Below the pieces are notes generated by a model. The model was given only the letters and a program-made list of their open reading frames with translations, was not told the DNA's origin and searched no databases. A program made the translations under genes and the position numbers. Shown here one piece after another: positions 5,559-17,119 of a DNA stretch of 64,000 nt. This DNA comes from a bacterium (GTDB taxonomy: Bacteria > Zixibacteria > MSB-5A5 > WJJR01), in assembly GCA_021813505.1 (NCBI GenBank), contig JAKAKI010000040.1, positions 56,559 through 120,558 on the forward strand. The letters run 5' to 3'. Numbering within the stretch: position 1 is the first letter of the stretch; the number at the start of each line of letters is the position of its first letter.

Positions 5559-5623
5559 GCCCGATCCCTTTGCCCCCGATAACGATACATGGTGGCACAC
5601 CATGCCACCATCAGGGGTTGAAC

Positions 5624-6796
5624 ATGGGATTTACCGGCAATCTGAAAACTCTCTCGTTCGGAGACATTCTCCAGCTCATATCCACGGGGAAGAAGACTGG
5701 AGTTCTCCAGATTCTGCGGTCGAATTTCGCGAAGAAGATTTACTTCCGCGGCGGGAATATTATCGCCGCCGCGTCGCTGCCTTCGACGATCGAAGAGCGG
5801 CTGGGGCAGGTGCTGGCGCGCAAGGGACTCTTGACGGCGGAAGATCTGGACAAGGCGCTGAAGAGACACAAATCCTCCGGCAAACGGCTTGGCCAGGTGC
5901 TCATCGAAAACGGGATGCTGGACCGATCCGTCGTCCTCGACGCGTTACGCGCTCAGGTGGAAGAGGTCGTTTACAGCGTCTTCTCCTGGTCGGAGGCGGA
6001 ATTCCGGTTCCTGGACGATGAGATGCCGGATCAGGGGCAGATTCTGGTTGATCTCAACACCATGAACGTCATGATGGAAGGCGCCCGGCGATTCGATGAA
6101 TACGCCGAGGTCGCCCACGATCTTCCATCCGGTGAAACTGTCCTGCGCCTGTGCCCGTCGCCGCATCTGAATCAGCCGAGCATCGTCCTCACCGCCGACG
6201 ACGTGGAGATTCTGGCGGCGGTCAATGGCGAACGAAATCTGCTGGAGATTCTCGCCACGGCGCCAAACGGTGAATACAGTGCCTCGAAATCACTCCACAA
6301 ACTCGTGCAATCGAAACTGGTCGAGGCCTGTCCCGATGCTGCGGAGCGCGACAAGCGGCGCGGAGAGGAAGAGCAAGTCTACGATTTGATCTACCGCCTG
6401 TATTCGCACGCGCTTCAGGCGCTGCGCAAGTCTCTGGTCGAATACCTCGGCATGCTGGGTGAACGGTTGTTCGCGGCGGTGCCGGAGGGCTGGGATTCGG
6501 AGACCGCCGGTCTCCTGAGTGTTTTGACCGGCGGGAGCGACGGCGCGGAGGAAGCATTTCGCAAGGAGACTTCCCGCATTCCCGAGACGGTGCGTCTGCA
6601 TCGGGTTCTGGCGCTGGCGGGATCATTGTTGTCCGACAAAGTGCGGGTGATGACCGATCGAGTGGGACCCAACACCACCGGACACACAATCAATGGAATA
6701 CACAAGGACCTGACCTTCCTGCTGGCGCAGAAGCGCCAGCTGGCCGACAAGTATGATGTCGGCAGGGAGTTCCGTCAGGCATTGCGAGGAGCGTGA
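5624..6796 (+). CDS. DUF4388-type (PATAN-like) domain protein
   Basis: N-terminal 'GNLKTLSFGDILQLISTGKKTGVLQI...IYFRGGNIIAA' is the DUF4388 signature. Start taken at internal 'MGFTGNL' (5624). C-terminal 250 aa have no recognisable family. Confidence 0.5.
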   Translation: MGFTGNLKTLSFGDILQLISTGKKTGVLQILRSNFAKKIYFRGGNIIAAASLPSTIEERLGQVLARKGLLTAEDLDKALKRHKSSGKRLGQVLIENGMLDRSVVLDALRAQVEEVVYSVFSWSEAEFRFLDDEMPDQGQILVDLNTMNVMMEGARRFDEYAEVAHDLPSGETVLRLCPSPHLNQPSIVLTADDVEILAAVNGERNLLEILATAPNGEYSASKSLHKLVQSKLVEACPDAAERDKRRGEEEQVYDLIYRLYSHALQALRKSLVEYLGMLGERLFAAVPEGWDSETAGLLSVLTGGSDGAEEAFRKETSRIPETVRLHRVLALAGSLLSDKVRVMTDRVGPNTTGHTINGIHKDLTFLLAQKRQLADKYDVGREFRQALRGA

Positions 6797-6800
6797 GACG

Positions 6801-7193
6801 ATGATCGCGAGCTTCATTGTATCGATATCGCATGTCCTCCGCGCCGGCGCGGGGACGCTAATCCAGCAGTCGTCGGGTGCGCAAAGCGGCCAGTCCTCCG
6901 TTTCCGGGTTTTCCATCGGATCGCTGATTCTGTGCATACTAATGGTGCTGGTGCTGGCGGCGTGCATCATGAGTGCTTTCAAGATCTATGTTGCCGTCCG
7001 GGGTGGGAAGATTGCCCAGGGCTGGTTTCTGTTTGTCGTTGGATTTGGGCTGCTTGGCCTGGCTCAGGTGATACTGCTCGCGTCTCAGATGACGATCCTG
7101 CCGGTGTCGACGATGCTGGCGGATGCCATGCGCGCCGTGGCCCTGATTGTGATTTTGATCGGCGCCGGCCGTCTGAGAAGACTCCTGACATAG
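6801..7193 (+). CDS. Small integral membrane protein (hypothetical)
   Basis: ATG 6801 lies 5 nt after the previous stop, with an 'aggag' 9 nt upstream. ~3 TM helices. No family recognised. Confidence 0.4.
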   Translation: MIASFIVSISHVLRAGAGTLIQQSSGAQSGQSSVSGFSIGSLILCILMVLVLAACIMSAFKIYVAVRGGKIAQGWFLFVVGFGLLGLAQVILLASQMTILPVSTMLADAMRAVALIVILIGAGRLRRLLT

Positions 7194-7392: not shown

Positions 7393-8283
7393 ATGATCAA
7401 CGTCGCGGAATTAGACGAGCGCATCGAACGTTGCCTGGCCATTCTGGCTGATAATCCGCATTCCCAGGTTTTTGCGGCACTGGCCGAGGCATACCGGCGC
7501 CGTGGAGACTTTGGCCGGGCATTCTCGGTGTGCAAGAGCGGGCTGAAGCATCACCCGGATTATAGTCCGGCCTATGTTGTTCTGGCCAAGCTCTATTTGC
7601 ACCAGAAGATGCTGCCGGATGCATTGACTTCTCTGCAGCGTGCGGTTGAGCTCGATGGCACGACTCGCGTCACCGATGTGCTCGAAGCGGAGATTCAACT
7701 CGCGCTGGGAGACATCAAGGCGACGCAGGTTGTGATCGATCGCTTGCGCATGACGGATCCGGGGAATGTCTCGTTGCCGGAACTGGTGGAACAACTGAAG
7801 CTGCTGCGGTCCGGCCCAATTGTCCCTCCGGCGAATTCTTCGCCCCCGGATGATTGGTCCCAATCATCGCCGCGCGCAGCCTCAGTGTCACGACCCGAGC
7901 CGGAATGCACGAATTGGCCGGAGTGGGCGGTCGCCACCGGCAATCTTCCGGGAGTCGAGTTTGCGTTCGTTGCCGGAGCAAATGGCCGCGTTAGCGCACA
8001 ATCCCCCGAGTCCGAGGCGACTCCCTCCAAAGCCGAAATCATTCTGGATTCGTTGCGGGAGATCGAAGGCCGCTGGCAGGCCGACGTTTGGGGAACGGTC
8101 GGTGAACTTCGCATCGAGAGCACACACGGAGACGTGTGGATCGGACGGCTCAAGGACGTGATCGTCGGATTCGTAGGGTCAGAGCAATTGAAGTACGGTG
8201 CGGCGCGCCAGCGCTGTCTTGATTTGGCGGCGCGGGTCCTGGATGCGCAGATCGCGACAGGCAGTACTGAGGGGCGTGTGTGA
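7393..8283 (+). CDS. TPR-repeat protein
   Basis: N-terminal TPR-like helical repeats ('AEAYRRRGDFGRAFSVCKSGLKHHPDYSPAYVVLAKLYLHQKM...'). Pro/Ser-rich C-terminal half. Confidence 0.6.
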   Translation: MINVAELDERIERCLAILADNPHSQVFAALAEAYRRRGDFGRAFSVCKSGLKHHPDYSPAYVVLAKLYLHQKMLPDALTSLQRAVELDGTTRVTDVLEAEIQLALGDIKATQVVIDRLRMTDPGNVSLPELVEQLKLLRSGPIVPPANSSPPDDWSQSSPRAASVSRPEPECTNWPEWAVATGNLPGVEFAFVAGANGRVSAQSPESEATPSKAEIILDSLREIEGRWQADVWGTVGELRIESTHGDVWIGRLKDVIVGFVGSEQLKYGAARQRCLDLAARVLDAQIATGSTEGRV

Positions 8284-8310: not shown

Positions 8311-9270
8311 ATGGGCGCATATGACAGGGACACAACGGCCGGAACTGTGAGCACGGTCGTCCGACAGACAATTCTTCTCACGGGCGCCCTGTCCGTGTTA
8401 CCGCTGTTGCCGTATCCCAACACTTTTGGGATGGGGATGCTGGGGGCCGGCCCCTGGCTGGGAGCCGTGGAAACTCTCCTGTATCTGGGGATTCTCTCCC
8501 TTCTGGCCCGCTGGCTCACCGCGCCGCAACTGATTGTCGGCGCCGTGCTGACGTTTGCCTATCGCGCAGCGCTTGGCGCCGCATCCGGATCATTGCTTGC
8601 GGCCAGCAACAATGTGCCCTGGGGGGAGTCGGTCAGTCTCACTCTGTGGTCTTATCCCATCGCGGTCTTTCCGCATATTCTGGCAGCACCACTGGTCGTG
8701 CGTTCCATTCTGAAAGCGTTTTGGGATGAAGAACGCCCGTATTCGCGCCGTCGTGCCATGCCGGTGACGGCGTCGACTGTGTCCCGCCGCGCCGACGGAC
8801 TGGCGCGTACTGAGCCCACTCCCCGTATTGTGCAGCATGCCGCGACGGCACGCGCTGTCACTCATAACATGCCGGCCCTTGACAACGCCATGAGCTACAT
8901 CGGCGAGTACGACGGTGTGCGGATGTGCTGGCTGGTGGACCATGAAGGATTGCCACTGGCTTCCTGGCAGCGGCAGGAGTACACGGGCAGTGTCGAGTTT
9001 TGGGCGCCGATTTCGGTTGAGATTGTGGAATTCAACCGGCGCTGTTTGTCGGCGGGTGGCGATGTCCGGCCACTGCGCGTCGAGGTACGGACCGATGCGG
9101 GACGAATCATTCTGGAAACCGCCGGGGAGTTCTGGCTGGGTGTATTGACCGATCGCGAAACGGATGAGCTCATCGGTCTGCGTCTTTCCCAATCACGCGA
9201 AATGATCTTAAAACATCTGCAGGAGCGGTGTGCGCAGTACTCGGGATTGCAGGAGGCTCGGTATGTATGA
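8311..9270 (+). CDS. Membrane-anchored Roadblock/LC7-domain protein
   Basis: RBS 'ggaaggga' before ATG 8311. N-terminal ~140 aa with 4 predicted TM helices. C-terminal ~110 aa ('SYIGEYDGVRMCWLVDHEGLPLASW...VEIVEFNRRCL...') resemble a Roadblock/LC7 fold. Stop overlaps the next gene start. Confidence 0.5.
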   Translation: MGAYDRDTTAGTVSTVVRQTILLTGALSVLPLLPYPNTFGMGMLGAGPWLGAVETLLYLGILSLLARWLTAPQLIVGAVLTFAYRAALGAASGSLLAASNNVPWGESVSLTLWSYPIAVFPHILAAPLVVRSILKAFWDEERPYSRRRAMPVTASTVSRRADGLARTEPTPRIVQHAATARAVTHNMPALDNAMSYIGEYDGVRMCWLVDHEGLPLASWQRQEYTGSVEFWAPISVEIVEFNRRCLSAGGDVRPLRVEVRTDAGRIILETAGEFWLGVLTDRETDELIGLRLSQSREMILKHLQERCAQYSGLQEARYV

Positions 9271-9601
9271 AGTATTAACCCAGTTGAACAAGACAAATGG
9301 CGTTACCGGCAGCATGGTGGTCGGCAACGATGGCATCGTGATCGCCGCAGACCTCAACAGCCAGATCGAGGACGACACGGTCGGTGCAATGGCTTCGTCC
9401 ATTGTGGCGACTGTCCGGCGGTCGATGACCAGCCTCGGAAATGGTGAGTTCTCCCAGATTACGGTCGAGGCGGACAAGCGCAAGATGTTCCTCGCCGATG
9501 CGGGCGTCGGAACCCTGGTGGTGACGACGGAGCCGCGCGTGAATATCGGGCTGGTGAGGCTCGAGATTCGCAACGCGATCAACGAATTGCGCAACGCCTG
9601 A
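9263..9601 (+). CDS. Roadblock/LC7-domain protein (MglB paralogue, MglC-like)
   Basis: RBS 'aggagg' 9251-9256, then ATG 9263. 112 aa: 'MYEVLTQLNKTNGVTGSMVVGNDGIVIAADL...TVEADKRKMFLADAGVGTLVVTT' is a Roadblock/LC7 profile. Confidence 0.65.
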   Translation: MYEVLTQLNKTNGVTGSMVVGNDGIVIAADLNSQIEDDTVGAMASSIVATVRRSMTSLGNGEFSQITVEADKRKMFLADAGVGTLVVTTEPRVNIGLVRLEIRNAINELRNA

Positions 9602-9648: not shown

Positions 9649-10605
9649 ATGGTAACCATCAATTACGCGTTTCGGGAGATTAGTTGTAAGATCGTCTACT
9701 ATGGCCCGGGTCTGTCCGGCAAGACGACCAATCTCCAATACGTGCATGATCGTGTCCCGTCCAAGTCCCGGGGAGATCTGATCTCCCTGGCCACCGAGGC
9801 GGACCGGACACTCTTTTTCGATTTCCTGCCGATTCACGTCGGTGACATCGCCGGGTTCGCGACCAAATTCCAGTTGTACACCGTGCCGGGCCAGGTCTTC
9901 TACAACGCCACGCGGAAGCTGGTGCTTCGCGGCGTCGATGGGATCGTGTTTGTCGCCGATTCGCAGACGGCGAAGATGGACGAGAACATCGAGTCACTGA
10001 CCAATATGTTCGAAAATCTTCGCGAGAACGGTATTGATCCGGCGGATATCCCGATCGTGCTGCAATACAACAAGCGTGATTTGCCGGACATCGTTTCCAT
10101 CGAAGAACTCCAGAAACAGCTGAATCCCTCCGGGTGGCCGTACTCCGAGGCATCAGCGGTGAGTGGCATCGGCGTCTTCGACACCCTCAAGCGAATCACC
10201 AAAATGGTGCTGGAACAGACCAAACGGCGGACGGCCGTCACGCCTGACGGTTTGCCGCAGATGGGTGAGGGAGTGCAGCCGTCTCCTGTCCACGAGCCGC
10301 ACGCCGCTTCCAGCATTTTGGAATCGAGTGGAAAGATCGCCCGGCCCCAAGCGCCTGCCGTTGCGGAAAGCTGGCCGTCGCCCAGCGATGCGCCGGTGGC
10401 AGTCGCTGCCGAAGAACCTGCGGTTACCGTTGCCGCGCCGGCCTCCAGAGAATCCGTTTCATCGGAGCGCCTGGGCGGGGCACCTGAATCGAATTCGTCA
10501 TCCTCGCGTGGCCGGATTGTCATGGCTGCGCAGCCTAGTTTGCGTATCCGAACCCGGCAGCGCTCGTTCTGGGGGCGCGTGCTGGATTGGTTGTCCGGTC
10601 GTTAG
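9649..10605 (+). CDS. mglA: Ras-like small GTPase MglA with ~125-aa low-complexity C-terminal extension
   Basis: N-terminal 195 aa are near-colinear with Myxococcus MglA ('INYAFREISCKIVYYGPGLSGKTTNLQYV...TLFFDFLP...YTVPGQVFYNATRKL...VFVADSQ...QYNKRDLP'). They are followed by a Pro/Ala/Ser-rich tail ending 'RQRSFWGRVLDWLSGR'. Confidence 0.85.
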   Translation: MVTINYAFREISCKIVYYGPGLSGKTTNLQYVHDRVPSKSRGDLISLATEADRTLFFDFLPIHVGDIAGFATKFQLYTVPGQVFYNATRKLVLRGVDGIVFVADSQTAKMDENIESLTNMFENLRENGIDPADIPIVLQYNKRDLPDIVSIEELQKQLNPSGWPYSEASAVSGIGVFDTLKRITKMVLEQTKRRTAVTPDGLPQMGEGVQPSPVHEPHAASSILESSGKIARPQAPAVAESWPSPSDAPVAVAAEEPAVTVAAPASRESVSSERLGGAPESNSSSSRGRIVMAAQPSLRIRTRQRSFWGRVLDWLSGR

Positions 10606-10615
10606 GAGGTGACCG

Positions 10616-11095
10616 ATGGCGTCGCATTCATTTGTACTATTCGAAGAGCAGATCAATCAGATCAACGCAGCCTTGCTGCGGATGATCAAGAAGGCAGAGG
10701 CGAAGTGTGCTCTCCTGGTGGACAAGGATGGCCATCTGCTCACCCGACAGGGGTTCACTCAAACCCTGGATACAACTGCGCTGGCGGCGCTGCTGGCTGG
10801 GAGTTTTGCCTCTACCAAGGAGATCGCCCGTCTGGTGGGCGAGCCGGAGTTCTCGGTGCTATTCCACCAGGGGAAAAAGGACCACATCCACATTTCGCTG
10901 GTGGGTGAGCGGTGCATTCTCGCCGTCGTGTTCGATGATCGCACCACCATTGGAATGGTGCGCCTATACGCCAAGGAAACCGGCGACCGACTCAAGGAGA
11001 TACTGACAGTCACAGGGAATCGTGAGGAGCCCGCGTTAGATCCCGATTTCACCCGGTCCGCCGGGTCGAAGATCGACGCGGTCTTCAAAGAGTAG
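10616..11095 (+). CDS. mglB: MglB (Roadblock/LC7 GTPase-activating protein of MglA)
   Basis: 159 aa with strong similarity to M. xanthus MglB ('LLVDKDGHLLTRQGFTQTLDTTALAALLAGSFAS...EFSVLFHQGKKDHIHISLVGERCILAVVFDDRTTIGMVRLYAKE'). Confidence 0.85.
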   Translation: MASHSFVLFEEQINQINAALLRMIKKAEAKCALLVDKDGHLLTRQGFTQTLDTTALAALLAGSFASTKEIARLVGEPEFSVLFHQGKKDHIHISLVGERCILAVVFDDRTTIGMVRLYAKETGDRLKEILTVTGNREEPALDPDFTRSAGSKIDAVFKE

Positions 11096-11165: not shown

Positions 11166-12857
11166 ATGTCCCAAGAACTCGGCCATATGCTGGTCAAGGC
11201 TGGGAAGATCACGCCTGAGCAACTGGCTCAGGCGCTCGAACGGCAGAAATCCAGCAGTGAGAAATTCGCCGACATCCTCGTCCGCATGGGTGCGGTGGCC
11301 GATGAGGACGAGCTTACTCATTTCATCGGCCGCCAGCTCAACATCGGGGCTCTGCGCTTGTCCGATGTTGAACTCAACCCCGAGATCGTCAAGGTCATTC
11401 CGCTCGATATTGCCCGGCGTTTCAATGTCATCGCCATTTCCAAACTGAACAAGACGCTGGTGGTTGCCATCAGTGATCCGCACAACATCTATGTGCTGGA
11501 TGCACTCAAGTTCATCACGGGATGCACGATCCAGCCCGTCATTTCACCGGAACGGGCGATCGGACGCGCGATTGACCAATACTACCGCGACAGCGGCGGT
11601 ATCGGTGATCTGCTCAAGGGACTCGAGGATGATGGCGGGCTTCAGGTCATCGAAACGCAGGACGCGCTGGACGAATCCGATCTGCGTTCACAGGTGCAGG
11701 ATAAGCCCTTGGTCAAGCTCGTCGATGGCATCATCATGGAAGCCATCCGGCGGGGTGCCTCGGACATTCACATCGAGTCGTACGAAAAGCGCGTGCGCGT
11801 CCGTTACCGCATCGACGGCGTGCTGCATGAAACCGAGCCACTGCCGTTCAAATATCGGGCCGCCATCGTTTCGCGCGTCAAGATCATGGCCGAACTCGAC
11901 ATTTCGGAACGCCGTCTGCCGCAGGACGGACGCATCAAGGTCAAAGTCGGCGCGCGGGCGGTTGACCTTCGCGTATCGGTGCTGCCCACGATTTTCGGCG
12001 AAAAGGTCGTGATGCGAATTCTCGACCCGCAGTCCCTGATGGCTGACCTGACACAACTGGGATTCCCGGAGCTCGCGCTCAAGAACTTCCAGCATGCCAT
12101 TTCCCTTCCCTACGGGATGATCCTCGTCACGGGACCCACAGGCTCCGGCAAGACGACCACACTGTACTCGGCGCTGAAGACTCTGAACGATCCTGAGGTC
12201 AATATCCTGACCGCCGAGGACCCGGTGGAGTTCAATTTTGACGGAATCAATCAGGTGCTGGTCCGGAGCGACATCGGCCTGACCTTCGCGGCATCGCTGC
12301 GCTCCTTCTTGCGACAAGACCCCGACATCGTGATGGTCGGCGAGATTCGAGATGGAGAAACCGCGGAGATCGCGATCCGCGCGGCACTGACGGGGCACCT
12401 TGTGTTTTCCACGCTTCACACGAATGATGCGCCCTCCTCGATCAACCGTCTGATCGATATGGGCATTCCGCCATACCTGGTCGCCTCGGCCACGAAGCTG
12501 ATCATGGCCCAGCGAATGACCCGAAAGATCTGCCCGCATTGCCGCAAGGAAATCGAGCTTACGCCCGAGCATCTGGCGGCTCTGGGGATCGCCCCGGAAG
12601 AGGCAAAAGAGCTTCATGTCTTTGAAGGAGCGGGTTGCGCGGAGTGCAATCACACCGGACTGTCCGGGCGAACGGGTATTTTCGAGGTGATGCCGATTTC
12701 GCCAATTGTTGAGCGGATGGTCCTCGACTCCGCATCGGTGGATGAACTTCGGCAGCAGGCTGTCAAGGAAGGGATGCTCACCCTGCGTATGGCGGCGGTG
12801 GGGAAGATGAAGCTGGGACTCATTCCGATTGAGCAGGTTCTGGCAGAGTCCGCCTGA
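11166..12857 (+). CDS. pilB: Type IV pilus assembly ATPase PilB (GspE family)
   Basis: N-terminal T2SS_E_N-like domain. Walker A 'GPTGSGKTTTLY'. Tetracysteine motif 'CPHCRKE...CAEC'. Confidence 0.9.
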   Translation: MSQELGHMLVKAGKITPEQLAQALERQKSSSEKFADILVRMGAVADEDELTHFIGRQLNIGALRLSDVELNPEIVKVIPLDIARRFNVIAISKLNKTLVVAISDPHNIYVLDALKFITGCTIQPVISPERAIGRAIDQYYRDSGGIGDLLKGLEDDGGLQVIETQDALDESDLRSQVQDKPLVKLVDGIIMEAIRRGASDIHIESYEKRVRVRYRIDGVLHETEPLPFKYRAAIVSRVKIMAELDISERRLPQDGRIKVKVGARAVDLRVSVLPTIFGEKVVMRILDPQSLMADLTQLGFPELALKNFQHAISLPYGMILVTGPTGSGKTTTLYSALKTLNDPEVNILTAEDPVEFNFDGINQVLVRSDIGLTFAASLRSFLRQDPDIVMVGEIRDGETAEIAIRAALTGHLVFSTLHTNDAPSSINRLIDMGIPPYLVASATKLIMAQRMTRKICPHCRKEIELTPEHLAALGIAPEEAKELHVFEGAGCAECNHTGLSGRTGIFEVMPISPIVERMVLDSASVDELRQQAVKEGMLTLRMAAVGKMKLGLIPIEQVLAESA

Positions 12858-12960
12858 TCCATTTCTATCAAGTGGCCCCTGCCGGAAGCCGATAAATCCT
12901 AAAAGGGCGTATTGGGCAAGCGAAAGTCAACGAATCAGCTCGGGGAAAGACACTGATCAT

Positions 12961-14061
12961 ATGGTGACGTTAAGAGAATTGCTGGAATTGGCGCATCAGC
13001 GCAAAGCATCCGATCTGCACCTGACAGTGGGATCTCCCCCACAGTTGCGCATCGATGGCCGGCTGGTTCGTACCGAAATGGAGCCGCTGACGGCCGAGCA
13101 GACCAAGAAGCTGGCGTACAGCATCATGAACGAAAAGCAGCGGAAGAAATTCGAGGAATCCTGGGAGCTGGACCTCTCCTTTGGAATCGAGAATCTCAGC
13201 CGTTTTCGCTGCAACGTATTCGTCCAGCGCGGCAATGTGGCCGTGTCGATCCGGCAGATTCCGTTCAAAATCAGCACCTTCGAAGAGCTGGGCCTGCCCC
13301 GCGTGGTCAGCGAACTGGCCAACCTGCCGCGGGGACTCGTGCTCGTCACCGGACCGACCGGATCGGGCAAATCGACGACGCTGGCGGCGCTGATCGACAA
13401 GATCAACCGCGAACGCTATTGCCACATCATCACCGTCGAGGACCCGATCGAATATCTGCACCGGCACCACTGTTCGATCGTCAACCAGCGCGAGGTCTAC
13501 TCGGATACGACGTCGTTTTCTTCGGCGTTGAAGTATGCGCTGCGCGAAGACCCCGACGTCGTGCTGGTGGGCGAAATGCGCGATCTGGAGACGGTCGAAT
13601 CCGCCCTGCGGATTTCCGAAACGGGCCACCTGGCGTTTGCCACGTTGCACACGAATTCCTGCGCGGAGTCCATCAACCGCATCATTGACGTGTTTCCGGT
13701 CAATCAGCAGGAACAGATTCGCGTGACGCTGTCATTCGTGCTTCAGGCGGTCGTCTCGCAACAGCTGATTCCGCGCGTCGGCGGCGGCCGTGTGCTGGCC
13801 CTTGAGGTCATGATTTGCACGCCGGCGATTAGGGCGGTCATTCGTGACGACAAGATTCATCAGATATACAGTTTGATCCAGGCGGGGCAGAAGTTCGGCA
13901 TGCGCACGATGAATCAGTCGCTGGCGGAATTGTACCTGGGGCGGAAGCTGACGATGGGCGACGCGGTTGCCCGGTCGAGCAATCCGCAGGAAATCAATGA
14001 TATGATCCAGCGCAGCCAGGTGCTGGCCGGGACTCGCGACCACGCAACAGTAGGAGGTTGA
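12961..14061 (+). CDS. pilT: Twitching-motility retraction ATPase PilT
   Basis: Start at internal ATG 12961 (the ORF has a spurious N-extension). 'GPTGSGKSTTLAALID', 'AFATLHTNSCAESINRI'. Typical PilT length (366 aa). Confidence 0.9.
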   Translation: MVTLRELLELAHQRKASDLHLTVGSPPQLRIDGRLVRTEMEPLTAEQTKKLAYSIMNEKQRKKFEESWELDLSFGIENLSRFRCNVFVQRGNVAVSIRQIPFKISTFEELGLPRVVSELANLPRGLVLVTGPTGSGKSTTLAALIDKINRERYCHIITVEDPIEYLHRHHCSIVNQREVYSDTTSFSSALKYALREDPDVVLVGEMRDLETVESALRISETGHLAFATLHTNSCAESINRIIDVFPVNQQEQIRVTLSFVLQAVVSQQLIPRVGGGRVLALEVMICTPAIRAVIRDDKIHQIYSLIQAGQKFGMRTMNQSLAELYLGRKLTMGDAVARSSNPQEINDMIQRSQVLAGTRDHATVGG

Positions 14062-14062
14062 T

Positions 14063-15262
14063 GTGCCTCTGTTCGAATACAAAGGGAAGACACTTGCCGG
14101 CACCGCGGTGGCGGGCGAACTCCGCGCCAAGAGCCGGGCGGATCTCGAACGCCTGTTGCGCCGCAAGAAGATCATGATCTCGAACGTCAGCAAGAAGCCG
14201 TCGCAGCTCAAATTCAAGCTGGGAACCGGCATCAAGAAGATCGAGATCTCGCGTTTCACGCGGCAGTTCGCCACAATGATCGGGGCAGGTCTGCCGATGG
14301 TGCAGTGCCTGGACATCTTGTCCAAGCAGATGGAGTCCGCCGAACTGCGGCGCATTGTCGGGCAGGTTAAAGAGTCCGTCTCGAGCGGCTCGACCTTGGC
14401 CGAGGGACTCTCCAAGCACAAGAAGATTTTCGACGACCTGTACGTCAATATGGTCGAGGCCGGTGAGATTGGCGGTGCCCTGGACACGATCTTAGTCAGG
14501 CTGGCCAATTATCGTGAAAAGGCCGATGCCCTCATCCGCAAAGTGCGCGGGGCTCTCGTCTATCCGACCGTCATCGTGGTGGTGGCACTGGCCGTCACGT
14601 TCATTATGCTAACGTGGATTGTGCCGGTGTTCGCGAAGATGTTCTCGGGCCTCGGTGCGGAATTGCCGGCACCGACGCAGATCGTGCTCGGTATCTCCGA
14701 ATTCCTCCGTCAAAACGTCGGGAAGATCCTCCTGTCCTTCATTGCACTGGGTGTCCTCTTCCGGATGATGTTGCGAACCGACAAAGGACGGCTGAACTTT
14801 GACCGGTTTATGCTGAAGGCTCCATTGATCGGTACGCTGGTACGCAAGAGCGCGATCTCCCGCTTTACCCGCACGCTGGGAACGTTGATTTCATCGGGCG
14901 TTTCGATTCTTGACGCCCTGGAGATTACGGCCAAGACGGCGGGCAATCGTGTGATCCATGATGCCATCCGCCGATCAGTGCTGGCGATTGCCGAAGGTGA
15001 TACGATTACCGGACCTCTGGTCCAGACCGGCGTATTTCCGCCGATGGTCACGCAGATGATCTCGGTCGGCGAAAAGACCGGCGGGCTGGACGATATGCTT
15101 TCCAAAATTGCGGACTTCTATGACGAAGAGGTCGACGCTGCCGTCAGTGCGCTGACATCAATCATTGAGCCGGTCATCATCGTGTTCATGGGCGTGGTGA
15201 TTGGAGGCATTCTGATCGCCATGTATCTGCCGATGTTCGACATCATCGGGAAGATCAAGTAA
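14063..15262 (+). CDS. pilC: Type IV pilus inner-membrane platform protein PilC (GspF family)
   Basis: GTG start 2 nt after the pilT stop, with 'aggagg' RBS at 14053-58. Two GspF repeats. 399 aa. Confidence 0.9.
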   Translation: MPLFEYKGKTLAGTAVAGELRAKSRADLERLLRRKKIMISNVSKKPSQLKFKLGTGIKKIEISRFTRQFATMIGAGLPMVQCLDILSKQMESAELRRIVGQVKESVSSGSTLAEGLSKHKKIFDDLYVNMVEAGEIGGALDTILVRLANYREKADALIRKVRGALVYPTVIVVVALAVTFIMLTWIVPVFAKMFSGLGAELPAPTQIVLGISEFLRQNVGKILLSFIALGVLFRMMLRTDKGRLNFDRFMLKAPLIGTLVRKSAISRFTRTLGTLISSGVSILDALEITAKTAGNRVIHDAIRRSVLAIAEGDTITGPLVQTGVFPPMVTQMISVGEKTGGLDDMLSKIADFYDEEVDAAVSALTSIIEPVIIVFMGVVIGGILIAMYLPMFDIIGKIK

Positions 15263-15346
15263 TCAGTTGACGCAAACGTGACCGGCGCCCCCAGGGGCGC
15301 CGGTCATTCCCCAGGTTGCCTGAGAGCCGGGCCCGGAAATCCTCCC

Positions 15347-17119
15347 ATGTTTGTCTACAGCCGGCGCCATTCCGCAGTTGCTCTGCGGCCGTCCTGGGTG
15401 GTTAGCACGCGCCTGGTGGCCTATGCCGTGACGACAGCGCTGGCGTGGCCGCTGCTTCGAACCACGCCGTATCTCACCAGTTCGCTGATCATCTACACCA
15501 CGGCCACGATCACGACCGTCCTGGCGGTGCTCATGGGACGGCGGCACGCGGCGTCTCCGCTTGCCTCGGTCCTGAGGGCCGCACAGATTGCCTGCGAACT
15601 GGTTGTCGTCTCGCTGATCGTCCTTCACACCGGCGGGACACGGTCGCCGTCGTTCTACCTGTATCTGACCACCATCATCTCCGCGGCGGTGTCGTATCGC
15701 CTGATCGGAACGCTCTTTGTGGCATCGGCGGCGACGGCGGCCTACTGCGTCGTGGTATGGATCGACTCCGGCCACGGGCTCTCGATCTTTCAGCCCAATC
15801 AGTGGCTTGGGACTGTCCGGCAGCTGTCGGATGAGGACTTCTTCACGGCATTCGTACGACTGTGCATTTTCTACCTCTGCGCGTTTGTCGGAGGGTACTT
15901 GGCGGAGCGGCTGTCTTCGAACGATGAAGTGCTGGCACACACGACGGAGGCGCTTAAAGAGGCCAAGCTCGAAACCGGTGATATTCTGAAGCACCTGAAT
16001 TCCGGGATCTTTACGGTCGATCTGGAAGGCCGCATCGTCTATTTCAACCGGGCGGCGGAGGAAATTCTCAGACTTCCGGGACGGCGCGTGCGCGGACGCC
16101 ACTTCCATGAGGCCTTTGAGGGACGATACCCTGAGCTGGTCAGCCGGCTCGAGACGGTGCTGCACTCCCAGAAGATGGATACGCGCACCGAGCTGACGAT
16201 TGATCACGCCGATGGCACGAAGACGCCGATCGGTCTATCGACGTCGGTGCTTGCCGATGCCGAGGGGAAGGCCCGGGGCGTGATCGGAATCTTCCAGGAT
16301 TTGACCGAGCCCAAGATGCTGGAAGAGAAGTTGCGGGCAAAAGACCGCCTGGCAGCGGTGGGCGAACTCTCGGCGGCGATCGCGCATGAAATCCGCAATC
16401 CTCTGGCGGCCATCTCAGGATCCGTTGAGGTTCTCCGCGACGAATTGAAACTCGAAGACGACAACCGGCGGCTTTTGAACTTGATTGTCAAGGAATCCGA
16501 TCGGCTCAACAAGATCCTGACGGACTTCCTGATGTACGCGCGCATTCGTCCGACCGTCGCCGGGCGGGTCAGCATTGCGCCGGTGATCGATGACGTGCTC
16601 GAGATCACGCGGCGGCATTTCCAGGGGCGGTCGGTCCAGTTGCGAACACGGCAGGCCGACCAATCATTGGCGGTGCAGGCCGATGCCGACCATCTGAAAC
16701 AGATCTTGATCAACCTGGTCTTCAACGCCGTCGAGGCGGGCGAGAGTCCCGACAGCGCCGTGACCGTGATTGTCGAAATCCCGCACGTGTTGCCCTTTGA
16801 CCCAAGGTTTGATGCCGACCGGAACAACCCGGCCCAATGGGTTTCCATCGCGGTCCACGACAATGGCGGCGGCATACCCGTTGAGGTCCGCCACCGTCTC
16901 TTCGAACCGTTTGTGTCCTCCAAGCCATCCGGAACCGGTCTGGGACTGGCCATAACCTCCCGGCTCGTCGAGAACATCGGTGGCGCAATCACGGTGGAAA
17001 GCCAGCCCGGACGCGGCACCACGATGGGAGTACTCCTGCCCCGGTGCGCGGCCACTGGCGAGGCTTCGGCATCGGACGAGACTTCCCCGCAGGACCTCGC
17101 GGTCGTGGCTCACAGCTAG
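15347..17119 (+). CDS. pilS: PilS-like sensor histidine kinase (6-TM N-domain, PAS, HisKA, HATPase_c)
   Basis: Start at internal ATG 15347. Six N-terminal TM helices. PAS ('FTVDLEGRIVYFNRAAEEIL'). H-box 'ELSAAIAHEIRNPLAAI'. N/G boxes 'HDNGGGIP...GTGLGLAI'. Adjacent to pilC. Confidence 0.75.
   Translation: MFVYSRRHSAVALRPSWVVSTRLVAYAVTTALAWPLLRTTPYLTSSLIIYTTATITTVLAVLMGRRHAASPLASVLRAAQIACELVVVSLIVLHTGGTRSPSFYLYLTTIISAAVSYRLIGTLFVASAATAAYCVVVWIDSGHGLSIFQPNQWLGTVRQLSDEDFFTAFVRLCIFYLCAFVGGYLAERLSSNDEVLAHTTEALKEAKLETGDILKHLNSGIFTVDLEGRIVYFNRAAEEILRLPGRRVRGRHFHEAFEGRYPELVSRLETVLHSQKMDTRTELTIDHADGTKTPIGLSTSVLADAEGKARGVIGIFQDLTEPKMLEEKLRAKDRLAAVGELSAAIAHEIRNPLAAISGSVEVLRDELKLEDDNRRLLNLIVKESDRLNKILTDFLMYARIRPTVAGRVSIAPVIDDVLEITRRHFQGRSVQLRTRQADQSLAVQADADHLKQILINLVFNAVEAGESPDSAVTVIVEIPHVLPFDPRFDADRNNPAQWVSIAVHDNGGGIPVEVRHRLFEPFVSSKPSGTGLGLAITSRLVENIGGAITVESQPGRGTTMGVLLPRCAATGEASASDETSPQDLAVVAHS

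Follow-up and report, generated by a model that had tools for sequence, protein, structure and literature searches.

What is the role of a long C-terminal extension on a bacterial small GTPase whose canonical relatives end at about residue 195? The question is raised by an mglA open reading frame in a 64,000 nt stretch of a Zixibacteria genome (NCBI GenBank assembly GCA_021813505.1, contig JAKAKI010000040.1, positions 56,559–120,558 of the forward strand), which is referred to here as the window. The open reading frame (positions 9649–10605, + strand) starts with ATG, ends with a TAG stop at 10603–10605 and encodes 318 amino acids (aa). It consists of an MglA G domain, a linker that is predicted to be disordered, and a conserved terminal 28 aa module that ends in a putative amphipathic helix. 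The terminal helix is fairly likely to bind the membrane directly. Extended MglA proteins of this type, found in several mostly uncultured phyla, are probably attached to the inner membrane close to the motor of the type IV pilus, which they would regulate, and not free in the cytoplasm like the MglA of model organisms.

The G domain

The complete G domain occupies aa positions 1–193 (9649..10227, + strand), as defined by phmmer and conserved motifs. Positions 3–193 align without gaps to Myxococcus xanthus MglA (5ymx/6h17, phmmer E-value approximately 3e-76) and positions 1–190 align to Thermus thermophilus MglA (3t12, E-value = 3e-71). The M. xanthus and T. thermophilus PDB chains stop at the start of the window protein's tail. 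Pfam matches (Ras, Arf and Gtr1) are confined to the first 190 residues, with none in the tail, positions 194–318, and NCBIfam has no specific model for the extended MglA protein. AlphaFold2 (AF2) gives the G domain block-mean values of the predicted local distance difference test (pLDDT) of 67–97, mostly 85–97 in its C-terminal half.

The motifs of the G domain are a P-loop GPGLSGKT (positions 19–26), an intrinsic Arg finger with G2 (R53-T54), G3 TVPGQ (78–82) and G4 NKRD (141–144). The P-loop, the DRT segment carrying the Arg finger and G2, TVPGQ and NKRD are invariant in alignments of 28 and of 97 sequences. An Arg finger beside the G2 Thr and a TVPGQ G3 motif are the defining features of group-1 MglA (PMC4316618). 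The window protein displays both, its Ras-like G1–G5 domain is nearest to characterised MglA, and its gene is coupled to an MglB gene. Judged by its motifs, the G domain carries all catalytic features of group-1 MglA. Homology predicts that it switches between the GTP and GDP states and that the neighboring MglB is its GTPase-activating protein (GAP). The size of group-1 proteins, a single domain of 150–240 aa, is exceeded by the 318 aa window protein.

The C-terminal extension

The initial annotation of this locus described a G domain collinear with canonical MglA that continues in frame into a Pro/Ala/Ser-rich, low-complexity extension of about 125 aa. This description is borne out. The tail comprises 125 aa, and both its composition and its terminus, RIRTRQRSFWGRVLDWLSGR, match to the residue. 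Ser, Ala and Pro make up 16%, 14.4% and 11.2% of the tail vs 6.2%, 5.7% and 4.7% of the G domain (sums of 42% and 17%).

The open frame by itself is weak evidence for a real extension, since 4.5% of mononucleotide shuffles of the 375 nt tail also remain without an in-frame stop (window GC content 59%). The annotation had named read-level evidence of a frameshift or stop near codon ~195, or orthologues without any tail or conserved terminal motif, as observations that would tell against it. No frameshift or stop was found there, and the orthologues do carry the tail. The identical 318 aa product is present on 16 contigs of a public collection, among them one from ENA and, assembled from a different run, one from Logan. 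An NCBI Zixibacteria metagenome-assembled genome (MAG) holds a copy with 94% identity. The best 120 database homologues are all 286–475 aa in length, and despite variable linkers the C-terminal motif is kept in frame in all of them except one partial record, such that more than 110 homologues share the architecture.

The ratio of nonsynonymous to synonymous substitutions (dN/dS, Nei-Gojobori) was determined against relatives at 94% and 83% identity. It is 0.013–0.019 in the G domain, 0.24–0.29 in the linker and 0–0.11 in the last 28 codons. The linker value of about 0.25 indicates that the linker is translated and is under weak constraint. The mean frequency of the top residue among 66 close homologues follows the same division, with 0.89 in the G domain, 0.28 in linker positions 201–290 and 0.77 in the terminal 28 aa. 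It is the terminal segment of the tail, then, that is conserved in the lineage.

The terminal module

The terminal 28 aa consist of an SLR box, a polybasic run and an amphipathic aromatic helix, in this order. The SLR box, VMAAQPSLRIR, spans aa positions 291–301 (10519..10551, + strand) and was delimited from 112 unique termini and the 66 close homologues. S297 is found in 94% of the unique termini and is nearly invariant in two alignments (A1 and A5); Q295 is found in 81 of the 112 (72%), and positions 299 and 301 are basic. The polybasic run RIRTRQR, positions 299–305 (10543..10563, + strand), was defined by column statistics: positions 299, 301, 303 and 305 are 88–99% Lys/Arg in the unique termini, and most homologues carry 7–11 Lys/Arg residues within the last 25.

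The helix, RSFWGRVLDWLSGR, spans positions 305–318 (10561..10602, + strand) and is a putative membrane-targeting sequence on the basis of its hydrophobic moment, the AF2 model and the helical wheel. Positions 307, 308, 311, 312, 314 and 315 are 88–100% hydrophobic with free exchange of Phe, Leu, Trp, Ile and Met, and positions 309 and 313 are variable among the unique termini. On the helical wheel all hydrophobic residues fall on one 160-degree arc (180–340 degrees). The 11-residue hydrophobic moment is 0.69, similar to those of the FtsA and MreB membrane helices scored identically. AF2 predicts the helix at positions 308–315 or 308–316, depending on the alignment, and dN is close to 0 here.

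As in MinD and FtsA, the module is found at the extreme C-terminus after a flexible segment, and its helical periodicity, which sets a hydrophobic face against a basic/polar one, is conserved by residue class and not by identity. Other kinds of anchor are not found in the window tail. It contains no Cys and no CAAX box (the chain ends with LSGR), and it shows no transmembrane segment, the maximum 19-residue Kyte-Doolittle mean being 0.94 with no value of 1.2 or above.

The linker

The Ala/Pro/Ser-rich linker, aa positions 194–290 (10228..10518, + strand), was defined from the AF2 model, conservation and composition. Across approximately 120 homologues it ranges from 76 to 254 aa, with a median of about 104. 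These linkers are rich in Ala, Pro, Ser, Val and Thr (A 19.6%, P 15.8%, S 10.4%) and have hardly any aromatic residues. AF2 shows no secondary structure between positions 196 and 307, with linker pLDDT values below 50 from the 28-sequence alignment and 46–58 from the 97-sequence alignment. The predicted coil of about 110 residues ahead of the terminal helix is consistent with the disorder suspected initially.

Linkers of homologues differ in chemistry. One in a MAG labelled Terriglobales (L007) contains a long Lys/Glu-rich stretch resembling a charged single alpha-helix or coiled coil, and two others (L003 and L004) are strongly acidic. All three proteins carry the basic amphipathic terminal motif. 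Divergent linker chemistry together with a common terminus suggests a spacer role for the linker, with physical properties adjusted lineage by lineage.

Small conserved segments are also present. Linkers of the window type display weakly conserved islands at W242 and around A249-P255 (AVAV). A recurrent (Y)RP(Y/F)PG motif, at times present twice, is found in Ignavibacteria and Zixibacteria linkers (L001, L006, L008, L009, L010, L016; P0086, P0091, P0111, P0133-P0166) and is not present in the window protein. The islands and the (Y)RP(Y/F)PG motif may be partner-binding short linear motifs.

Extended MglA proteins in other genomes

Related loci were collected by a scan of genome contigs. The best 80 of at least 600 stretches were analysed, which makes the phyla named here a sample and not a census, and each MglA open reading frame was read through to its stop codon. 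Canonical MglA of 188–209 aa is found at 57 of the 80 loci (Gemmatimonadota, Acidobacteriota, Myxococcota, Desulfuromonadota and others) and extended MglA at 23. Fifteen of the 23 extended proteins end with a basic amphipathic terminus. These are from Zixibacteria, Ignavibacteria, Fibrobacterota and Chitinivibrionales, together with one Nitrospiraceae, one unclassified MAG and the MAG labelled Terriglobales. Most of the amphipathic termini, including those of Zixibacteria and Ignavibacteria relatives, read K(K/R)GFFKRLFG(I/L)K.

The Planctomycetota proteins show a different terminus. At all four complete loci an A/P-rich linker leads into a C-terminus of about 20 aa that is hydrophobic (Kyte-Doolittle 2.3–3.0) and has the form of a tail anchor; a fifth locus ends with its contig. 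A database search with one of these Planctomycetota proteins gave 115 full-length homologues (294–427 aa), of which 114 have the hydrophobic C-terminus. Two putative membrane-attachment devices occupy the same position after a similar linker, and no other observation argues as strongly for membrane tethering as the role of the extension.

In a neighbor-joining tree of the G domain all extended forms cluster, apart from the canonical ones. The extended proteins would, by this grouping and by their termini, form a wider and unclassified branch of membrane-anchored MglA. The reference classification left out MglA-clade sequences longer than 240 aa, 39 of 488, of which 14 are mglB-coupled (PMC4316618).

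The annotation of these proteins is a practical problem, as they carry either a nonspecific GTPase label or the name "signal recognition particle receptor subunit beta". The latter is given in JGI records to many extended MglA proteins of both anchor types, and is probably a mis-transfer from SR-beta, a small GTPase anchored to the membrane in eukaryotes.

A profile of the terminal 30 aa, which is too short to recover MinD itself, gave 52 matches among 1.84 billion representatives. Twenty-four of the matching sequences were retrieved and read, and nearly all are partial sequences from this MglA family. The two that have no relation to MglA show tandem KxGFFKRLFG-like repeats: P0143 (307 aa) contains three tandem copies of KPGFFKRLFG, and P0124 (1502 aa) contains seven tandem copies of KKSFFAKLFGDEEDD, which precede a large multipass membrane domain in the chain. 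It appears that the MinD-like motif is a self-contained, reusable unit.

Membrane attachment and alternative explanations

The initial annotation suggested that the basic amphipathic end could be a membrane- or partner-binding helix that alters the localisation of the GTPase. The computational evidence supports this and favors the membrane option, for four reasons. Hydrophobic positions of the helix are 88–100% conserved by class with free exchange of residues, and positions 309 and 313 vary. AF2 gives only a short terminal helix after approximately 110 unstructured residues. The sister clades carry a motif near the MinD membrane-targeting sequence. Lastly, the Planctomycetota relatives have a hydrophobic, transmembrane-like segment instead.

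With membrane attachment, anionic lipids in the inner membrane would attract the basic residues, while the hydrophobic/aromatic face of the helix would insert in the cytoplasmic leaflet, as in MinD and FtsA. MglA would in this way be kept at the membrane and diffuse in two dimensions. The linker would let the G domain reach its partners, probably MglB as GAP, the PATAN, TPR and Roadblock proteins of the cluster, and the pilus base formed by PilB/PilT/PilC. A rough estimate from the linker length is that the G domain could sample a shell of about 10 nm or wider under the membrane, where PilB and PilT sit. The GTP/GDP state would set which partners are engaged and not whether the protein is present at the membrane, which is the design of eukaryotic Ras with its hypervariable-region anchors.

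Several points weigh against membrane attachment. It is read from sequence alone. The AF2 confidence for the terminal helix is only about 58–66. The window helix is short (approximately 11–14 aa), contains an acidic residue, D313, and is less basic than the versions in sister clades; a monomer might therefore bind only weakly. Three extended proteins (L022, L034 and L063) display neither the amphipathic motif nor a hydrophobic segment, and thus the tails of the branch are not all membrane anchors. The neighbor-joining tree carries no bootstrap or other support values and its grouping is indicative only. Finally, nothing like the SLR box, with S297 at 94% and Q295 at 72%, is present in the membrane-targeting sequences of MinD and FtsA, and the box resembles rather a site for specific protein recognition or for modification.

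The last point leads to the alternative that survives best, although it appears unlikely: that the terminal module is a short linear motif docking on a protein (TPR, PATAN, Roadblock or PilB/PilT), with the linker as a leash. The SLR box is conserved by identity (R299 is 99% basic), and generic lipid binding would not call for this. Genes for the TPR protein, a transmembrane-Roadblock protein and a Roadblock protein accompany the amphipathic tail at 10–12 loci and are absent or rare at canonical loci. Peptides that are extended or C-terminal are common ligands of TPR domains. SgmX, a TPR protein of M. xanthus, is reported to act in type IV pilus function as an effector of MglA-GTP (PMC7519303, PMC7668184). 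Docking does not fit the free Phe/Leu/Trp/Ile/Met interchange and the variable polar face, which are typical of lipid-binding helices, nor the close likeness of the motif to the MinD membrane-targeting sequence. In addition, the Planctomycetota proteins have a plain hydrophobic C-terminus, and no homologue of the transmembrane-Roadblock or TPR protein was found at those loci. The two readings are compatible, in that the SLR box could rest on a protein and the helix on the membrane.

Folding of the terminal helix back on its own G domain for autoregulation, for example on the surface bound by the MglB C-terminal helix in M. xanthus, is highly improbable. Tethering would give a high local concentration of the helix, and the MglB C-terminal helix is reported to be an allosteric regulator of MglA (PMC6785124). 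But an intramolecular latch does not need a variable linker of 76–254 aa, the AF2 model displays a low-confidence helix and a linker without defined structure, and a helix that docks on a soluble domain could not be replaced by a transmembrane-like segment, as it is in Planctomycetota. Slightly more improbable still is nucleic acid binding by the Arg-rich end (RIRTRQRS...) in a DNA-uptake context provided by the upstream ComEC. The polybasic run is conserved and ComEC is in the same syntenic block; however, the aromatic amphipathic helix and its replacement by a hydrophobic segment are left unexplained, and the module is always at the extreme C-terminus, as are the MinD and FtsA membrane-targeting helices. 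An artefactual tail, produced by assembly or annotation from an MglA that really ends near codon 195 with a frameshift or missed stop, can be dismissed: open shuffles at 59% GC and long spurious open reading frames that overlap the region in other frames speak for this possibility, and are outweighed by the recurrence of the product on the 16 contigs with different sources, by a terminal motif that stays in frame in more than 110 homologues despite linker insertions and deletions, and by dN/dS values below 0.3 along the entire tail.

Taking membrane attachment as the preferred reading, a broader proposal can be put forward tentatively. The MglA branch omitted from classifications would consist of membrane-tethered switches. 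Relatives in Zixibacteria, Ignavibacteria and Fibrobacterota would use an amphipathic helix as anchor, and those in Planctomycetota a transmembrane tail. They would represent a lipidation-free counterpart of the Ras design that runs the type IV pilus polarity module on the membrane with Roadblock, TPR and PATAN proteins, in place of the cycle between poles through the cytosol that MglA follows in Myxococcus. This may well hold, but its failure would be slightly less of a surprise. As pure speculation, the conserved Ser of the SLR box, beside the polybasic run, might be a switch that releases the anchor.

Gene neighborhood

The order of mglA and mglB differs between the two forms. At canonical loci mglB is upstream of mglA in 51 of 57 and downstream in none; at extended loci it is downstream in 17 of 23 and upstream in none. 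In the window, mglB encodes an MglB-like Roadblock/LC7 protein of 159 aa (10616..11095, + strand; Pfam Robl_LC7 E-value = 2.6e-13), the presumed GAP, and starts 11 nt past the mglA stop. The NCBIfam MglB model (Thermus type) gives an E-value of 7e-26, which is below the cut-off of the model. The junction (10603..10618, + strand), read directly from the sequence, consists of the TAG stop, a Shine-Dalgarno sequence, AGGAGGTG (10604–10611), and the mglB ATG at 10616. The mglA stop overlaps the mglB Shine-Dalgarno sequence, and the same layout is found in five relatives. By this arrangement the mglA–mglB junction is translationally coupled.

The pil genes are directly downstream of mglA–mglB (11166..15262, + strand) and show the same order in 11 relatives. 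These are pilB (11166–12857; Pfam T2SSE and MshEN), a pilT-like ATPase gene (12829/12961–14061; T2SSE) and pilC (14063–15262; T2SSF). A PilS-like kinase gene follows (15278–17119, + strand; Pfam 6TM_PilS and HisKA).

Upstream of mglA, a second Roadblock/LC7 protein is encoded by a 123 aa open reading frame (9230..9601, + strand; Pfam E-value = 1.8e-15), which is conserved in position in relatives; gene calls of other assemblies start it at 9263, for a product of 112 aa. The preceding gene (8311..9270, + strand) overlaps it (9230/9263–9601) and encodes a 319 aa protein with a hydrophobic N-terminal half (positions ~12–138) and a weak Roadblock-like C-terminal half (Pfam Robl_LC7 E-value = 7.8e-4, sub-threshold). 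It is syntenic in 10 loci of the Zixibacteria/Ignavibacteria type and is found at none of the canonical loci. From its predicted features it may be a membrane-anchored Roadblock protein. The cluster contains up to three Roadblock-type proteins (the 319 aa protein, the 112 aa protein and MglB), which loosely recalls the membrane-anchored Ragulator scaffold of the Rag GTPases.

Further upstream is a syntenic gene for a TPR-repeat protein of 296 aa (7393..8283, + strand; Pfam TPR_19 and TPR_14, E-value = 1.4e-9). A Roadblock domain in the C-terminal half of the TPR protein was considered and is rejected, as BLASTP showed no similarity to the neighboring Roadblock protein. Between the PATAN and TPR genes, positions 6801–7193 encode a protein of about 130 aa with 3–4 strongly hydrophobic segments (Kyte-Doolittle up to 3.0). 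It has no Pfam match in the gene tables of related contigs and its position is kept in the relatives L081, L083, L085, L087 and L088.

The PATAN (DUF4388/PatA_N) gene is at 5570..6796 (+ strand; Pfam PF14332 E-value = 6e-33). A PATAN homologue is found near 16 of 23 extended vs 5 of 57 canonical loci, in several phyla (including L024, L026, L027, L028, L063 and L064). These data extend the MglA–PATAN association noted by Wuichet and Sogaard-Andersen.

The neighborhood of the Zixibacteria/Ignavibacteria type is conserved over approximately 15 kb in the order MurJ, ComEC, PATAN, small membrane protein, TPR, hydrophobic Roadblock-like protein, Roadblock, extended MglA, MglB, PilB, PilT, PilC and PilS.

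Nucleotide conservation at the mglA–mglB junction

A segment at positions 10504–10632, consisting of the last ~33 mglA codons, the 10 nt spacer and the first ~6 mglB codons, is nearly identical in nucleotide sequence between the window and relatives at 94%, 83% and 73% protein identity. Use of the same codon is 0.71–0.96 at the junction vs 0.46–0.84 in the G domain, and dS is 0.05–0.21 vs 0.27–2.3 elsewhere in the mglA gene. This synonymous conservation is lost in relatives at 68% identity or less. A structured RNA was considered and is without support: the fold z-score vs shuffles is −0.48 and the RNAalifold covariation term is +1.2. A search of Rfam with the junction yielded no match at an E-value of 1 or better.

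Comparison with known systems

MglA is the main model of Ras-like spatial regulation in bacteria, and is explained as a cytosolic protein captured at one pole. The family is described as cytosolic (bioRxiv 10.64898/2026.07.23.738820). Canonical group-1 MglA proteins (M. xanthus, T. thermophilus, Bdellovibrio; 195–197 aa) have G domains 60–65% identical to that of the window protein, and share with it the Arg finger, TVPGQ, NKRD, coupling to an MglB Roadblock gene and the link to type IV pili. They end at about residue 195 with mglB upstream, whereas the window protein has a further 125 aa of linker and anchor with mglB downstream. No report of an MglA that ends in a membrane-targeting sequence or a tail anchor was found in open-access papers and bioRxiv preprints, which were the sources covered. 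The combination of MglA, a disordered linker and a MinD/FtsA-like helix is not a new class of system. If the membrane assignment is true, it contradicts the working assumption that MglA is cytosolic, and a large conserved subfamily, tethered permanently or conditionally, would follow other physics, with two-dimensional diffusion and a reach set by linker length.

SofG, the M. xanthus MglA paralogue with extensions, works with bactofilins. It is a group-1 orphan of 239 aa without a cognate MglB and is involved in the positioning of PilB and PilT (PMC4316618). It is like the window protein in being longer than the core domain, but no membrane helix is described for it; SofG is set apart by description only. 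The Planctomycetota MglA homologues are closer. They are on the same branch of the G domain tree and have an A/P-rich linker and a downstream mglB. They differ in their transmembrane-like anchor of about 20 aa, and pilB is not adjacent within the flanks that were fetched. For Zixibacteria, Ignavibacteria, Fibrobacterota and Planctomycetota, in which there is almost no genetics, the extended proteins offer a handle on type IV pilus positioning.

The C-terminal helices of MinD and FtsA provide the nearest likeness to the terminal module. The E. coli MinD sequence KGFLKRLFGG has been used as an experimental membrane tag (PMC5471200), and FtsA carries the C-terminal amphipathic helix GSWIKRLNSWLRKEF (PMC9098913). 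The termini of the relatives, RGFFKRLFGIK and K(K/R)GFFKRLFG(I/L)K, are very close to the MinD sequence, and RSFWGRVLDWLSGR of the window protein resembles the FtsA helix. The hosts, however, are a ParA-type ATPase and an actin homologue and not a Ras-like GTPase, and the SLR box is not present upstream of their helices. The MinD and FtsA tethers are also far shorter than the ~100 aa linker of the extended MglA. A targeting peptide predicted to have no more than about 25 residues makes the membrane proposal easy to test.

Archaeal ArcoA, Asgard Arf-like proteins and eukaryotic Arf/Sar1 are also switches of the Ras superfamily that use an amphipathic helix at the membrane. Membrane binding by such a helix has been shown experimentally for ArcoA, where it is N-terminal (bioRxiv 10.64898/2026.07.23.738820), and for Asgard Arf (PMC11914678). 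In this group the helix is N-terminal and adjoins the G domain, whereas in the window protein it is C-terminal and behind a long linker.

The overall layout is that of eukaryotic Ras/Rho proteins such as K-Ras4B, which combine a G domain, a disordered and poorly conserved C-terminal region and a polybasic membrane anchor. The differences are in the anchor, which in the window protein would be an amphipathic helix and not a prenyl group on a CAAX Cys, in the linker, which is 5–10 times longer, and in origin, which is independent. If membrane tethering holds, bacteria arrived on their own at the Ras layout, in which a disordered linker connects the G domain to a membrane anchor.

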